Assembly (NCBI GenBank): GCA_965223505.1
Contig: CBDCWP010000030.1
Location: forward strand, 32,001 to 96,000
DNA: 64,000 nucleotides
Direction: 5' to 3'
DNA from: Planctomycetota bacterium
Lineage (GTDB): Bacteria; Planctomycetota; PLA2; JAEUHO01
The notes beneath the pieces were generated by a model, which did no database searches, was not told where the DNA came from, and worked only from the letters and a program-made list of their open reading frames with translations. A program made the translations under genes and the position numbers. Below, in pieces: positions 39,279-45,384 of this stretch. The stretch's first letter is position 1. Each line of letters starts with the position of its first letter.

Positions 39279-39658
39279 TCCGCGACGACCTCCGGCGCCT
39301 CGGCGGGTGCGTCGCGCTCGCCGCACAGCAACGCCATGGCGGCGACGAGTAGCTCGTCCATGCGCGACTCCGCGTCGTCGATCCAACGTCGGACGGCGAG
39401 CCGGGCCTCGCTCACGGCGTCGACGCCGGCGGCCTCGACCTGGCGCAGAGCCTCGCGTTCGCCTTCGATGACGATGTCCCGCAGCTTCTGCTCACCCTCC
39501 TCGCGGATGCGCTTGGCCTCGGCGCGGGCCGCCGCCAGACGCGCCTGGGCGTCGCCCTGCGCCCCCTGCAGCCGCTCACGCGCCCAGGCTTCGACGGCGA
39601 GGAACGCAGGCAGGGCGGAGCGCCCCGGTGTGACGGGCGGGAGGTTGGGTCGCGTCAT
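39275..39658 (-). CDS. V/A-type ATPase subunit H/G-like coiled-coil protein
   Basis: 127-aa Ala/Glu/Arg-rich helical protein whose stop overlaps the subunit I-like start. Confidence 0.55.
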   Translation of the reverse strand: MTRPNLPPVTPGRSALPAFLAVEAWARERLQGAQGDAQARLAAARAEAKRIREEGEQKLRDIVIEGEREALRQVEAAGVDAVSEARLAVRRWIDDAESRMDELLVAAMALLCGERDAPAEAPEVVAE

Positions 39659-39791
39659 GGACGTGGAGCGTACCGGCGGAGCAGGACAGCGTCGGACCGT
39701 AGCGCGCGGCAGCCGACGAAGGCCCCTTGCTCACCGCGCACCCGCCACGACGGCGATCCGGCCAGGCGCCGTCGAGCGGGACGAGCCGCCG

Positions 39792-40712
39792 CTAGCCGCC
39801 GGTGGCGTTCTTCTTCAGCCAGTCGACGAGCTGCTCGCGGACGGACGCGAACTTGCCGTTGACCTTCACGTCGACAGCCTTCAGCAGCGCCTCGACCTCC
39901 TTGCGCTTGTCGGCCGTGGAGCTGTCGTCGTCCTCGACGGCGAACTCGAAGGCGTAGCCGACGTCCTCGCTGATCGACGCCATGTGCGCGTCGATGTAGG
40001 CCGTCAGGCCCTTGCCGGGCTTCTTCGCGATCTTCAGGACCTCCACGAACGCCTCGAGGGCCTTGCGCCACTCCTCGTCGTCGATCGCCGCGAGGGCGAC
40101 CTCCATGTGCGGGAGCGCTTTTTCGAACTTCTTGAAGGTCAACGCTTCGCCCAGCTCCTTCTGAAGGGCTTCGGTCGCCTTCTGAATGCTCTTCGTGACG
40201 AACTGGTCCTTCTCCTCGATGCGGTGCACCTTGCCGTCGGGCGCGATCAGCCACGAGTTCGGGCAGAGCTCGACGAAGGGCACCACCGGCAGCGTCTCGT
40301 CACGAGAGGCATCGGTCTCGACCGCGATGTTGAGGTGGTCGCGGCACGTCAGACCGGGATAGAGCGGGCAGCGCTTGTTCTCGCCGGTCTGGTTCGCGAC
40401 CTCGATCTCTTCGTGCCCGAGCTCGTTGTGCGCAATCAACACGATCACGCTCTCTTCCGCCCACTTGATGAACGACTTGTTGGTCAGCACCGACCGGTAC
40501 TGGTTCGTGCAGCGGCCTCAGAAGTCCTTGTGACGGCTGAAGAAGATCGGCACGTTGCGAACGCGCGCCTCGACCATCGCCGCTTCGTAGCTCGTCATGT
40601 AGCGCAGGTGTGCGCCCTTCGGGTGCTCCTCCGCGAACGCGCCGCCGGCGAACAGGATCGCCGCCGCGATTCCGAGCCAGCAGACCGGCCCGGTCAGTCT
40701 TCGAATCCGCAT
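39792..40712 (-). CDS. Candidate exported thioredoxin-like selenoprotein B (U65-G-R-C), 306 aa
   Basis: GGAGG RBS, ATG 40712, signal peptide ending AFA; EARVRNVPIFFSRHKDF-TGA(40520-40518)-GRCTNQYRSVLTNKSFIKWAEESVIV continues in frame into track ORF 39792-40490. Confidence 0.88.
40485..40502 (-). promoter_or_regulatory. Bacterial SECIS-like hairpin of selenoprotein B
   Basis: mRNA CAGUACC-GGUC-GGUGCUG starting 15 nt after the UGA; G at the first loop position. Confidence 0.7.
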
Positions 40713-40735
40713 GTGACCTCCCGAGACGCCGGCCG

Positions 40736-41668
40736 TCACTTGGCCTTCGCCTCCTTGATCCACTTCTTGATGTCGTCGACCACCGGTAGGTATCCGCGTT
40801 TGAGACGCTTGCCGACGGCGGACTTGAGCTGACCGGCGGCCTTGATCTTGGCCTCCGCGTCGCCCTCACCCTCCTTGAGCTCCTCGAACGCCTCGACGAT
40901 CGCCTCGTTCAGATCGTCGAGCCGCTCCTTGACGATCTCCTTCATGCCGTCCGGCAGCTTCTTGGTGTCCTTCTCGACGTCCGCGTAGGCGGCCAATGCG
41001 GCCTTCCAGTCCATCGTCTCGATCGCCGCGTCGCCCGCGTCGAGCGATGCCACGTACGCCTTGTACTTCTTCATCGGAAGGTGCTTGAGCTTCAGCTTCT
41101 TCAGCCCGGCCTGGGCCATCTCGATCACCTTCTTCGGCTTCGTCTTGTAGGCGTTCGAGACGGTCTCGACCTCGCCGTTGGGCATGACGAACCAGCTCGT
41201 GGGCGTGCTGACCGGCTTCTTGATTTGCGGCAGGCCGGACGCAGACGTCAGCGCCGCGATCTCGTTGGCGATCCCGCGGTGGTCCTCGCACAGGAGACCG
41301 GGGTACTTCGGGCAGCCTTCGACCTTCTCACCGTTTTCGTCTTCGATCTGCGACGGGTGTTCTTCCGTCTCGTGGGCGATGGCCACGATCATGTTCTCGT
41401 TGGCCCACTCGACGAACCCGCCGTCTTGCAGCACCGAACTGTGCTGCGCCTCGCACGGGCCTCAGTTGTCCTTGTGCCAGACGACGTAGATCACGGCGTT
41501 GCGTGCCCGGGCTTCGTACACCGCGTCCTCGTAGGACTTCGCGTAGCGAAGGTGCGTCTCTTTCTCCTCCTTGGCGAGGCCGCTGCCGAGCGAACCGAAC
41601 ACGGCCGCCGCGGCGACGCAGAACAACGCGCAGGCGAAGCGGCGATGCCATGCAAGACGGTGGCTCAT
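40736..41668 (-). CDS. Candidate exported thioredoxin-like selenoprotein A (U69-G-P-C), 310 aa
   Basis: ATG 41668, signal peptide; EARARNAVIYVVWHKDN-TGA(41464-41462)-GPCEAQHSSVLQDGGFVEWANENMIV continues in frame into track ORF 40736-41434. Confidence 0.88.
41428..41447 (-). promoter_or_regulatory. Bacterial SECIS-like hairpin of selenoprotein A
   Basis: mRNA GCAGCAC-AGUUCG-GUGCUGC starting 14 nt after the UGA; perfect 7-bp stem; G at the second loop position. Confidence 0.72.
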
Positions 41669-41747
41669 GAGCGGACTCCGGGCACGAGGATCGCCGATGG
41701 GCGGCGCGGGCGCCAGGGGGCAGCCCCCGCCGGCCCCCGGCAGATAG

Positions 41748-41773
41748 GACGGTTGTCGCCCGAAGGGGGTTCC
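41748..41773 (-). promoter_or_regulatory. Possible ECF-sigma promoter (GGAAC-N17-CGTC)
   Basis: Minus strand GGAAC-CCCCTTCGGGCGACAAC-CGTC, about 80 nt upstream of ATG 41668. Confidence 0.45.
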
Positions 41774-41813
41774 ATCGGCCGCGGGCGGCCCGCCGAGGCT
41801 CGGTTTCGAGCGC

Positions 41814-43127
41814 CTAGCGCAGCGGGACGTCCTTGAGCACGACTTCGAGCTCCCCGTCCGACTCGCGGTCGAACCAGGTCACCCAGATCGCCTCCGGCTT
41901 GCCGATGCCCGCGCCGTAGGCCCGGCCGGTGAGGTTCAAGGTGCCGTCGGCGCTGTGCGAGCGCCCCCCCATCACGTGCAGCCGCTGTTCACGGCCGCCT
42001 GCCCAGCGCACGAAGATCTGCGCCGTCGTTCGGGCGAGCTGCTTGGGGAGTACGGCCACCAGCTCGACGACCCAGGACCCGGTCTGGTTCTCCACCGGCT
42101 CGAAGGAGCGCAGCTCCACCGACCCTTCGGTGCCGGGCTCGACGTCCTTCCCGTCCTTGGTGCGGCAGCGCGGCAGCTTCTCGATGTCGTCGAACCGGAC
42201 GGTGTGCGCCACATGGCGGATGCGCATCGGGAACTTCACGACGAGCTTCGCGAGCTTCTCGTGAAAGACGTCCGTCGTCGGTTGGAAGGTCACATTGACC
42301 GAGCGCGAGGATTGCATCGGTGAGACGCCGTACGTGACGCGCCCTTTGGTGGTCGCTCGAAACGCGTTTCCTGCGGTGTCCTCGGCCGCGGTCACCGTCG
42401 GCGTGCTGAGCTGCGAGACCGCGACGCTGGGAACCCACCAGACGTCGAGGGTCAACGAGTAGTGCGGCTTGGCCGTGCTGGTGAGCGCGCGCGTGCTGGT
42501 GACCTCGGTGACCCGCACGAGCACGGGTCCGGCCGCCGCCTGCGGCACGACGACGGCCTCCGCATCGCGGTGGACGAGACGCGCGTGCCCGGCGCCGTCG
42601 AACGGCCCTTTCATCGAGAGGTCCGCCCGCTTCAGCAACATGCGCAGCGCTTCGAAGTAGGGCTCGTTCTCGATCTCGCCCCCGCTCTCGGGCGGCGTCC
42701 AGTCGTCGGGCATCTCGAAGCGGCCACCGAACTGACGCCCCAGGTCCTTGAGCGTCGCGTCGGAAGCGGGCAGCGTCACGCGGCCGATCGCCGCCAGGTC
42801 GCCCGGCGCGACCGGCGCGGTCTTCGTCGGCTCGCCGCCGAGCAGCAGGCGCACCGTGCGACGCACCTCCGGGTCCTCGTCGTCGGCGACGGCTTCGAGG
42901 AGGTCGCGCGCCTTCGTGCCATAGCGCTGCAGTCCGTGACGGGCCGTCTGACGCGTCGCGAACGAATCGGAGCGCAGATCCTCGATCCACTGCTTGACGT
43001 GCGTGCGCAGTGCCTCGCCCTGGAGCGCGGGCGGGATCTGCGGCTCGTCGGCCCGCGCGTCCGGTATGCGAACCGGCGCCGAGAGGGCGCACGCCAGGAG
43101 AAACAGAAGTCCGGCGCGGCGGTTCAT
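41814..43127 (-). CDS. Secreted hypothetical protein with an N-terminal HEAT-like repeat
   Basis: Signal peptide; IEDLRSDSFATRQTARHGL...DEDPEVRR; beta-rich C-terminus. Confidence 0.7.
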   Translation of the reverse strand: MNRRAGLLFLLACALSAPVRIPDARADEPQIPPALQGEALRTHVKQWIEDLRSDSFATRQTARHGLQRYGTKARDLLEAVADDEDPEVRRTVRLLLGGEPTKTAPVAPGDLAAIGRVTLPASDATLKDLGRQFGGRFEMPDDWTPPESGGEIENEPYFEALRMLLKRADLSMKGPFDGAGHARLVHRDAEAVVVPQAAAGPVLVRVTEVTSTRALTSTAKPHYSLTLDVWWVPSVAVSQLSTPTVTAAEDTAGNAFRATTKGRVTYGVSPMQSSRSVNVTFQPTTDVFHEKLAKLVVKFPMRIRHVAHTVRFDDIEKLPRCRTKDGKDVEPGTEGSVELRSFEPVENQTGSWVVELVAVLPKQLARTTAQIFVRWAGGREQRLHVMGGRSHSADGTLNLTGRAYGAGIGKPEAIWVTWFDRESDGELEVVLKDVPLR

Positions 43128-43143
43128 GGGTTCTTCGACGGTG

Positions 43144-45177
43144 CTAGACGGCGACCTGTTCCTTCTTGTGCCTCGCGATGATGTCGTTGGCCAGGTGCGA
43201 CGGCACCGGGTCGTAGTGGGCGAGCTTGAAGCCGTAGTCGCCCTCACCGGCGGTGAGGGAGCGCAGCTCCGTGCTGTAGTTCATCATCTCGGCGAGCGGC
43301 ACCTCGGCCTTGATCTGCGCCATGTCCTCTTCCTGGTTCATGCCCAGGATGCGGCCGCGGCGGCTGTTCAGGTCGCCGGAGATGTCGCCCATGAAGCGCG
43401 ACGGCACCTCGATCTCGACCTCCATGATCGGCTCGAGCAGAACCGGCCGGGCGGTCTCCACGGCGGCGCGGAACGCCGCGGCCCCCGCGAGCTTGAACGA
43501 GAACTCGTCGCTATCGACGTCGTGGAACTTGCCGAAATGCACGATGGCGCACACGTCGACGAACGGGTAGCCCGCCAGGACCCCCTTCGAGCACTGCTCG
43601 ACGACGCCCTTCTCGACCGCCGGAATGAACTGACGCGGAATCGCGCCGCCGACGACCTCGTCCTTGTACTCGAAGCCCTCGCCGCGTCCCTTGGGCTCGA
43701 CCTTGAGGTGCACCTCGGCGAACTGGCCCCGGCCGCCCGACTGCTTCTTGTGCCGGTGCATGCCCTCACCCTTCGCGGTGATCGTCTCCAGGTACGGGAT
43801 GCGCGGCTGGCGCGTGACGGTCTCGACCTTCTTGCGCGCGAGACGCTTCAGCATGATGTCGACGTGCAGCGCGCTCATGCCGCGCACGACCATCTCGCCG
43901 GTGGATTCCTCGCGCTCGGCGATGAAGGACGCGTCGCCGTCGGCGAGCTTGTGCAGCTCCGGTCCGAGCTTCGCCTCGTCGTTGCGGTTCTTCGGTTCGA
44001 TGGCCAGGGTGACCTTCGGGTACGGCGCCGGGATCGCGGCGAACGTCCAGTCGGCGCTGCCGTCGGTGATCGTGTCGCCGATCTGGACGTCCTCGACCTT
44101 CGCGACCGCGACGAGATCGCCCGCCGACGCGTTGGGGACGGCCTGCATCTCCTTGCCCTGGGTGTCGAGCAGATCGCCGATGCGCTCGGTCTTGCCCGTG
44201 CGGGTCACCACGAACTGCGTCTTGCCCGGCAGGGAGCCGCTCCAAACCCGCAGGTACGACAGCTTGCCGACGTGCGGGTCGATCTGGATCTTCCAGACCT
44301 GCGCGGAGAACGGCCCGTCGGCCTTCACGGCGACGTCGTCGCCGGCCTTGTTGGTCGCCTTGCGCATGACCTCGCCGTGGCGGTTCGTGGCGTGCGGGCA
44401 GTCCTTCGTGATGAAGTCGAGCAGCTTGCGCATGCCCACGCCCTTCTCGGCGGACACGTGCAGGACCGGGACGATGTTGCCCTGGCGCAGCGCGCGCGGG
44501 AACGCGTCGGCGAGCTCCTGCTTGGAGACCTCGCCGGTCTCGAAGTAGCGCTCGAGCAGATCGTCGTCGCACTCGACCACGCGGTCGGTGGCCTGCTGCC
44601 GGTACTCCGCGGCCTGCATCTCGAGGTCGTCGCTCAGGCCTTCGGCAAAGATGTCGTAGACCTCCGAGGCGCTCGAGCCGAACGCGTCCGGCAGGTTCAT
44701 CGGCACGGCGCGCTCGCCCATCGCCGACTGGATCGACGCGTAGAGCTCGTCCGGCACGATGTTCTCGCCCTCGATGCGCGTGATCAGCACCACGCACGCC
44801 AGGCCCTGGTCGCGCGCGTAGCGGAACAGCCGGCGCGTGGCGACGCCGACGCCGTCGTGGGCGTTGACGCAGATGATGGCCGTCTCCGAGGCCGCGAGGC
44901 CGCAGACCGCCTCGCCGACGAAGTCGAGCGCGCCGGGCGTGTCGACGATGTTGACCCGCTTGCCTTCCCACGTGAGGTGCATCGGCGTGGCGATGATCGA
45001 CTGCTGGCGTTCCTTCTCGTCCTCGTCCCAGTCCGAAACCGTGTTCTTCTCCGGCACGCTGCCCTTGCGGGAGACGGCCTTCGCGAGGTGGAGCATCGTC
45101 TCGGCGAGCGTCGTCTTCCCCGCCCCACCGGCGCCGACAAGGGTCACATTGCGTACATCGTCAGGGCTCTTGGCCAT
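43144..45177 (-). CDS. fusA: Elongation factor G paralog (EF-G II / EF-G-like)
   Basis: GAGGAGKTT, RQQSI, DTPGALDF, KKQSGGRGQF, FHDVDSDEFSF, LLEPIM; start ATG 45177. Confidence 0.9.
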   Translation of the reverse strand: MAKSPDDVRNVTLVGAGGAGKTTLAETMLHLAKAVSRKGSVPEKNTVSDWDEDEKERQQSIIATPMHLTWEGKRVNIVDTPGALDFVGEAVCGLAASETAIICVNAHDGVGVATRRLFRYARDQGLACVVLITRIEGENIVPDELYASIQSAMGERAVPMNLPDAFGSSASEVYDIFAEGLSDDLEMQAAEYRQQATDRVVECDDDLLERYFETGEVSKQELADAFPRALRQGNIVPVLHVSAEKGVGMRKLLDFITKDCPHATNRHGEVMRKATNKAGDDVAVKADGPFSAQVWKIQIDPHVGKLSYLRVWSGSLPGKTQFVVTRTGKTERIGDLLDTQGKEMQAVPNASAGDLVAVAKVEDVQIGDTITDGSADWTFAAIPAPYPKVTLAIEPKNRNDEAKLGPELHKLADGDASFIAEREESTGEMVVRGMSALHVDIMLKRLARKKVETVTRQPRIPYLETITAKGEGMHRHKKQSGGRGQFAEVHLKVEPKGRGEGFEYKDEVVGGAIPRQFIPAVEKGVVEQCSKGVLAGYPFVDVCAIVHFGKFHDVDSDEFSFKLAGAAAFRAAVETARPVLLEPIMEVEIEVPSRFMGDISGDLNSRRGRILGMNQEEDMAQIKAEVPLAEMMNYSTELRSLTAGEGDYGFKLAHYDPVPSHLANDIIARHKKEQVAV

Positions 45178-45384
45178 AGCGCTCTCCAGCCGCGAATCAG
45201 GGGTCCTGGGGATACCGGCAACGTCGGGAGCGGTCAACCTGTGACAGCCCCGGGCCCCCGATCTTCTGGGGTTTTACGCCGTCTTGCGACCTTTGCGCCC
45301 GTCGGACGGAGGCCGATGTTGGGACGCCCCCGCGGCCCCCCTACACTCGCGCCCGCGGGCGGAGGGGACGCCCGCAGGAGTGTG

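Follow-up and report, generated by a model that had tools for sequence, protein, structure and literature searches.

Two tandem genes on the minus strand of a 64,000-nucleotide stretch of Planctomycetota bacterium DNA (assembly GCA_965223505.1, contig CBDCWP010000030.1, positions 32,001 to 96,000; this whole stretch is called the window, and its own numbering is used unless another contig is named) each contain an in-frame UGA codon that is followed, within the coding sequence, by a small RNA hairpin. By computational criteria each hairpin is very probably a working bacterial selenocysteine insertion sequence (SECIS) element, and we put the probability of this reading at about 0.92. The two genes, A and B, are intact tandem paralogues for exported thioredoxin-fold proteins in which the first active-site residue, that of a UxxC motif, is written as UGA, and both UGAs are almost certainly read as selenocysteine (Sec, U). 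Across the gene family the element, a 5-7 bp stem with a GGUC-type loop 15-16 nt past the UGA, is kept by selection at the RNA level where the codon is UGA, and is lost where the codon is one for Cys.

Hairpin A (41428..41447, minus strand) reads UGA-N14-GCAGCAC[AGUUCG]GUGCUGC. Its 7-bp stem pairs GCAGCAC (41447..41441) with GUGCUGC (41434..41428), the loop is AGUUCG (41440..41435), and 21 nt (14+7) separate the UGA from the loop. Hairpin B (40485..40502, minus strand) reads UGA-N15-CAGUACC[GGUC]GGUGCUG, with a 7-bp stem of CAGUACC (40502..40496) and GGUGCUG (40491..40485) that includes one U-G pair, a GGUC tetraloop (40495..40492) and a distance of 22 nt (15+7) from UGA to loop. These strings and spacers, read from the minus strand, are exactly as first described in an earlier note on this DNA, and the codon reading given there was reproduced: CAG CAC AGT TCG GTG CTG (QHSSVL) in gene A against CAG TAC CGG TCG GTG CTG (QYRSVL) in gene B. 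Hairpin B occupies the same alignment columns as the family consensus, while hairpin A is the sole family member examined with A.G at the closing position and GUUC replacing GGUC.

Folding, which the earlier note had proposed as a check, returned both hairpins as the minimum-free-energy structure of the local 28-30 nt, with weaker z-scores in longer windows. Hairpin A folds at -12.8 kcal/mol (z -2.55; 4 of 200 shuffled sequences fold as well) and hairpin B at -10.6 kcal/mol over 28 nt (z -2.80; 2 of 200), the 18-mer of B alone giving -9.1. The exact pattern was defined as a 7-bp stem in which no more than one pair is G-U, placed 14-15 nt past the codon and capped by a loop of 4-6 nt whose first or second letter is G. 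Its chance rate was taken from coding frames of the same genome that are supported by G+C content at third codon positions (GC3), where it occurs after 0.24% of Cys codons (21 of 8606) and 0.26% of GGC codons (143 of 54966). A and B are paralogous, so their hairpins represent one inherited feature kept in both copies and are not independent hits.

To follow the element beyond the window, gene A was searched in 41 genomes, 40 relatives and the window's own. Matches were found in 35 of them, comprising 22 of 24 in the same family, all 11 in a second family of the order and one of five elsewhere in the phylum, and nearly every full-length match holds exactly one TGA. Eighty sites were aligned at the Sec position, and three were dropped (L027, where the frame is lost at a contig end; L073, which has Asp; and L079, which is misaligned). 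The 77 retained sites, the window's two genes included, align the UGA of gene A (41462..41464, minus strand) with TGA in 53 and with TGC or TGT in 24. Even homologues of 25-30% identity keep the TGA at the same codon, with an open frame before and after it, and the A-then-B tandem order recurs in related genomes. As a query for related loci, gene A alone gave 67 pattern matches, none of them confirmed, and a seven-sequence family alignment gave nine loci, all from Planctomycetota or Planctomycetia metagenome-assembled genomes (MAGs) by title; the titles of named records with the family are likewise all Planctomycetota, Planctomycetales or Planctomycetia MAGs.

Pairing was counted over the seven proposed base pairs in alignment A1, a gap-free set of the 53 Sec sequences with 52 distinct rows. 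Paired cells make up 81.3% of the total compared with 73.7% in shuffled alignments, a level reached by none of 500 shuffles. The covariation score is 0.240 against 0.118 after shuffling (again 0 of 500), and does not exceed 0.084 when the partners are slid. Three pairs carry compensatory changes, namely 22-33 (CG 39, UA 8, UG 3), 25-30 (CG 39, GC 7, AU 1, GU 1) and 21-34 (GC 44, AU 3, GU 2). At pair 22-33 most B-type orthologues have U-A and the A-type has C-G; the U-G of the window's gene B is intermediate between the two. The two outer pairs are formed in under half of the Sec sequences; RNAalifold, used independently, predicts just the inner 5-bp core, and single-sequence folding of 69 nt recovers this core in 31 of the 53. 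Some members build another hairpin at the same site, as in L048 (UGCAUGAC[GGU]GUCAUGCA) and L052 (GACCG[GUU]CGGUC).

The codons that write the hairpin are also constrained at their synonymous sites. Of the 41 Arg codons at position +8, 40 are CGG (background in the same genes 20.9%), and Gly at this position is GGG in 7 of 8 (background 18.5%). Ser at +9 is TCG 40 times, TCC seven times and AGC never (n=47), compared with a background of 37.5% TCG and 29.3% AGC, and the seven TCC codons are those of the rows with GGG at +8, where they produce a G-C closing pair. Val at +10 is GTG in 43, GTA in 8 and GTC in 2 of the 53 sequences, against background values of 57% for GTC and 0.8% for GTA; the rare GTA stands opposite TAC in all eight cases. 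The covariation across homologues for which the earlier note had called is present, both in the three compensated pairs and in these frozen synonymous sites.

A different reading of the same codons is that selection on the protein keeps the peptide Q-(H/Y)-R-S-V-L and that the hairpins follow from it as a by-product, with no function in the RNA and with the UGA decoded by something else. The peptide is highly conserved, S78, V79 and L80 being invariant in alignment A2, and the His and Val codons by themselves give three in-register pairs (CAC/GUG) even in some Cys homologues, one of which (L038) reaches four consecutive pairs. However, conservation of the protein does not account for synonymous sites fixed far past codon bias (CGG in 40 of 41, no AGC for Ser, GTC in 2 of 53), nor for amino-acid swaps that are paired with compensating synonymous ones (TCC for TCG where R has become G, and GTA for GTG where H has become Y). 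In the Cys homologues the same peptide positions vary freely (+8 has S, G, K, E or A, and no member of the HGFY subfamily has R there) and the hairpin is lost. We consider this by-product explanation very improbable. If the hairpins are SECIS elements, the requirement on the RNA would have frozen the peptide that they encode as a side effect.

Comparison of Sec with Cys forms gives the same picture of a structure that goes with the UGA. An in-register stem of at least 5 bp is present in 45 of the 53 Sec rows and in none of the 24 Cys rows, and the counts for the GGUC loop are identical. The earlier note had named a hairpin equally kept in Cys homologues as the result that would speak against it, and these counts are the opposite of such a result. 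A maximum-likelihood tree was built quickly from 70 proteins, the other seven of the 77 rows being shorter than 150 residues, and on it the distribution of Sec and Cys requires four changes. L076, L064 and a clade of 11 members are Cys forms that branch from within the Sec forms; the hairpin has disappeared from them, and their residues vary at the sites that it encodes.

Gene A (40736..41668, minus strand) has 310 codons and runs from ATG 41668 to a true stop, TGA, at 40738..40736. Translated with TGA as U it carries Sec69 in the motif N-U-G-P-C (MSHRLAWHRRF...VVWHKDN-U-GPCEAQHSSVLQDGGFVEWANE...). Gene B, its tandem paralogue (39792..40712, minus strand), starts 23 nt past the gene A stop at ATG 40712, which has GGGAGG ahead of it; an alternative GTG start lies at 40763. 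Its in-frame UGA (40518..40520, minus strand) is Sec65 counted from ATG 40712 and lies in the motif F-U-G-R-C (...FFSRHKDF-U-GRCTNQYRSVLTNKSFIKWAEE...). The two proteins are 34% identical across 293 residues, and both UGAs take the first position of a UxxC motif (U-G-P-C in A, U-G-R-C in B). In the frame that carries the TGA, GC3 is 0.90 upstream and 0.84 downstream of it in gene A, and 0.92 and 0.94, respectively, in gene B. The AlphaFold model of the gene A protein (mean predicted local distance difference test score 86.6) has a disordered N-terminus, a thioredoxin fold and an all-helical C-terminal domain of about 130 residues. Its best Foldseek matches in the PDB are 3f9u (an exported cytochrome c biogenesis-related thioredoxin domain), DsbH (2ju5) and DsbD-gamma (1uc7), at E values of 6e-4 to 4e-3.

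If translation really ended at the TGAs, A and B would each be a broken or split gene, and the hairpins would be of no relevance. Public protein collections do contain just the downstream pieces (11 matches of 227-240 aa, 74-76% of gene A), for which the sole source-given name is 'hypothetical protein'. However, the TGA is conserved at one codon in 53 homologues with an open frame on either side, it stands where a CxxC redox motif would have its first Cys, read-through is needed for a complete thioredoxin fold, and the genome has the full Sec machinery. We give the idea of broken genes next to no weight, and read both UGAs as Sec codons.

The machinery for Sec insertion is complete in this genome (5.15 Mb, 67% G+C, 44 contigs). 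It includes selA (507.2 bits), selB (335.7 bits), selD (338.1 bits) and one tRNA-Sec (anticodon tca), and the SelB protein has the SECIS-binding wing as a C-terminal SelB-wing_3 domain (53.8 bits). selA and selD are adjacent on one strand (contig C8:36851-39232), and selD itself has an in-frame TGA at C8:38345 in the motif GAGG-U-AAK.

The bacterial SECIS model, as outlined in a 2026 review (PMC13188914), has a loop of 3-9 nt, a stem of 4-16 bp, a distance of 16-37 nt from UGA to loop and an energy of -7.5 kcal/mol or lower, with a G within the first two loop positions that is usually followed by G or U. Hairpins A and B lie within all five constraints of this bSECISearch-type model. Their loops are 6 nt and 4 nt, both stems are 7 bp, and the loops begin A-G-U(-U-C-G) in A and G-G-U(-C) in B. 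The earlier note's identification of the hairpins as SECIS elements is upheld by this fit, by the alignment of the UGA with Cys in homologues and by the complete Sec machinery. The model is looser than the element of the A/B family, whose 12-nt core is CACCGGUCGGUG or UACCGGUCGGUA. A simplified implementation of our own matched 17% of control Cys-codon sites and 8 of 17 Sec genes of the genome, and the published model was rejected as a genome-wide discriminator, being too loose in a G+C-rich genome and, as implemented, too strict in its energy test.

The fdhF gene of Escherichia coli (NC_000913.3) likewise carries its hairpin within the coding sequence, directly downstream of the Sec UGA, and its apical tetraloop, GGUC, is that of gene B and of the family consensus; gene A has A-GUUC-G and not C-GGUC-G. 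The fdhF loop lies 18 nt past the UGA, whereas hairpins A and B place theirs at 21-22 nt, about 4 nt further. One U of the 5' arm is left unpaired in the upper stem of fdhF (GGUUGCA/UGCACC), but the stems of A, of B and of the family consensus are uninterrupted. In fdhF this unpaired U is important for SelB binding, and the G-U of the loop is the SelB contact in E. coli and Moorella. A lower helix that reaches the UGA is a further difference from fdhF, as it is not conserved in the A/B family. In the 68-nt fold of A, GGCCC just past the UGA pairs with a downstream GGGCC, and this helix was rejected as part of the element, five such pairs being possible in only 6 of the 53 homologues.

By analogy with the E. 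coli and Moorella mechanism, the hairpin would sit at the mRNA entrance of a ribosome with the UGA in its A site. SelB, carrying GTP and Sec-tRNA(Sec), would then use its C-terminal winged-helix domain to bind the G-U of the apical loop, and would deliver Sec where release factor 2 would otherwise act.

Other Sec genes of the same genome offer a comparison outside the A/B family. A GC3-based genome scan gave 142 in-frame TGA candidates, of which 20 were picked by eye, and 16 of these have a Pfam domain spanning the TGA; the domains include AhpC/Redoxin, Thioredoxin_7, DsbD, deiodinase-like, CMD, PMSR and DUF3179. A relaxed pattern (a perfect stem of at least 5 bp, a loop starting N-G-U and a spacer of 8-30 nt past the UGA) is present in 13 of 17 other Sec genes, these being the 16 together with selD, and after 76 of 2000 sampled Cys codons (3.8%; 340 of 8188 in the full set), an enrichment of about 20-fold. 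Spacers in the other Sec genes span 11-26 nt and stems 5-8 bp, so the N14-15 spacer with a 7-bp stem belongs to the A/B gene family and not to the lineage. selD was tried as a comparator for hairpins A and B and set aside: its UGA is followed by N14-CAAGGCC[ACCUUGGA]GGCCUUG, a hairpin whose 8-nt loop, ACCUUGGA, has no N-G-U and is of a type different from that of most Sec genes here.

The earlier note had proposed that the two hairpins give a lineage-specific pattern for finding more selenoproteins. As a search aid the pattern has proved useful in its relaxed form, which enriches for Sec genes and led to further candidates. The lineage-specific part of the proposal did not hold, since the element fits the published model and shares the GGUC loop of fdhF, a general bacterial type, and its exact spacing and stem are those of one family. 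The comparison with known selenoprotein genes suggested there was borne out for the 13 genes with an N-G-U loop and failed for the loop of selD.

The hairpin might instead have some other role in the RNA and not recruit SelB; it could, for example, make the ribosome pause for export or folding, affect the stability of the mRNA or bind another protein. Its position, soon after the signal peptide and the domain's first strand, is one at which translation could conceivably pause. On the other hand, its presence tracks UGA versus Cys and not the protein family, unrelated Sec genes (AhpC/Redoxin, DsbD, deiodinase-like, CMD, DUF3179) share the loop type at a similar distance from the UGA, and the loop is identical to the SelB-binding loop of fdhF. 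Only a slim chance attaches to a role of this kind, and recruitment of SelB by a SECIS element is the function we favour.

Several observations weigh against the SECIS reading. Eight of the 53 Sec homologues are without an in-register 5-bp core; L035, L045 and L060 keep 4 bp only, and L048, L050, L051, L052, L053 and L058 have other loops or shifted hairpins. C-GGUC-G is otherwise nearly invariant, and gene A, whose loop differs from it, may have a weaker element. Folding z-scores over 45-68 nt are -0.4 to -1.2 and not significant, and with these values in a genome of such high G+C content the folding energy alone is insufficient for a SECIS claim. An Rfam scan of positions 39500-42000 at E values up to 10 gave two chance-level matches (ASpks, sucC) and no SECIS family. 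Phylogenetically independent contrasts between Sec and Cys number four, too few for a sign test to be significant; the hairpin follows Sec in two to three of them and the reverse is never seen (sign test, median p 0.25-0.5), so the raw Sec/Cys counts partly reflect shared ancestry and overstate the independent evidence. Among the other Sec genes, selD and three more are without the N-G-U pattern, and the relaxed pattern was defined after the Sec genes had been seen, which makes the 20-fold enrichment somewhat optimistic.

Altogether the genome has at least 22 genes with a TGA inside a recognisable domain or family. These are the 16 genes above, a LysR-family regulator, an ArsC-family gene with UxxC, a CMD/AhpD-like gene with HCKFU, selD, and genes A and B, and they are found on contigs C5, C7, C8, C10, C11, C12, C21, C24, C33, C34, C39, C43 and C44. 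Most encode exported thioredoxin-fold, peroxiredoxin or redoxin proteins, and a deiodinase-like protein with EF-hands, MsrA and DUF3179 are also among them. Selenoproteins have been reported in cultured Planctomycetes, according to the account in PMC4807772.

The LysR-family regulator (L113, contig C33:14172-15131, minus strand) lies outside the window. It matches HTH_1 at 75.7 bits and LysR_substrate at 150.8 bits, the latter spanning a TGA in the motif LLLEDGH-U-LRDQAWAIC, and the codon is followed by the hairpin UGA-N21-AUCUGCC[GGUC]GGCAGGU. The TGA falls at what we take to be the redox-sensing Cys position of OxyR, with the second Cys nine residues later. On these sequence features the protein is a candidate selenocysteine OxyR. 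The terms 'OxyR' and 'LysR' are absent from the main text of the review PMC13188914, and a literature search on OxyR as a selenoprotein with an in-frame UGA found no paper.

A and B resemble the UxxC thioredoxin-fold selenoproteins of the thiol:disulfide interchange, DsbD-gamma or Thioredoxin_7 type in having Sec for the first Cys of CxxC in an exported fold. They differ from them in several respects. In Pfam they score 26.5 and 24.1 bits with Thioredoxin_7, slightly short of its cut-off of 27, and the NCBIfam library, which includes curated selenoprotein models, gave no relevant match to the family at E values up to 1. The helical C-terminal domain is an addition, and so are the conserved A-B tandem pairs and a set of invariant Cys and His residues (H65, H99, H104, C119, C127 and H130; gene A numbering, 17 sequences), beside which Y122 and G124, as well as U69 and C72, are invariant. 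These extra residues point to a metal site or another redox pair beside the Sec. The main text of the review PMC13188914 has no occurrence of 'PF13899', although the family may still be listed in its full table or supplements under a general thioredoxin-like name.

Two genes lie upstream of gene A on the same strand. One encodes a 477-aa protein with a weak HEAT_2 match (41814..43247, minus strand) and the other an EF-G-type GTPase with all five EF-G domains (43144..45237, minus strand), and no link between these two neighbours and the selenoprotein genes was seen.

The known mechanism of Sec insertion is unchanged by the hairpins of A and B, a SECIS element after the UGA being the expected bacterial signal, and what they add is modest: an uncatalogued and mis-annotated selenoprotein family, and a textbook-quality case of RNA constraint on a coding sequence. 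Because gene callers cut the family at the UGA, databases lack its signal peptide and active site. The GGUC loop in common with E. coli suggests that SelB recognition is conserved between Proteobacteria and Planctomycetota. A broader proposal, to which we give even odds, is that an uncatalogued family of exported, tandem thioredoxin-fold selenoproteins with an invariant Cys/His set and a helical C-terminal domain is widespread in Planctomycetota, with its SECIS RNA freezing a five-residue stretch of the protein, and that the relaxed hairpin rule exposes an unusually large selenoproteome of at least 22 genes, among them a LysR/OxyR-type regulator with Sec at the redox-sensing position. With its compensatory pairs, frozen synonymous sites and loss of the hairpin in Cys forms, the A/B family is an unusually clean natural case of an RNA signal dictating protein sequence.

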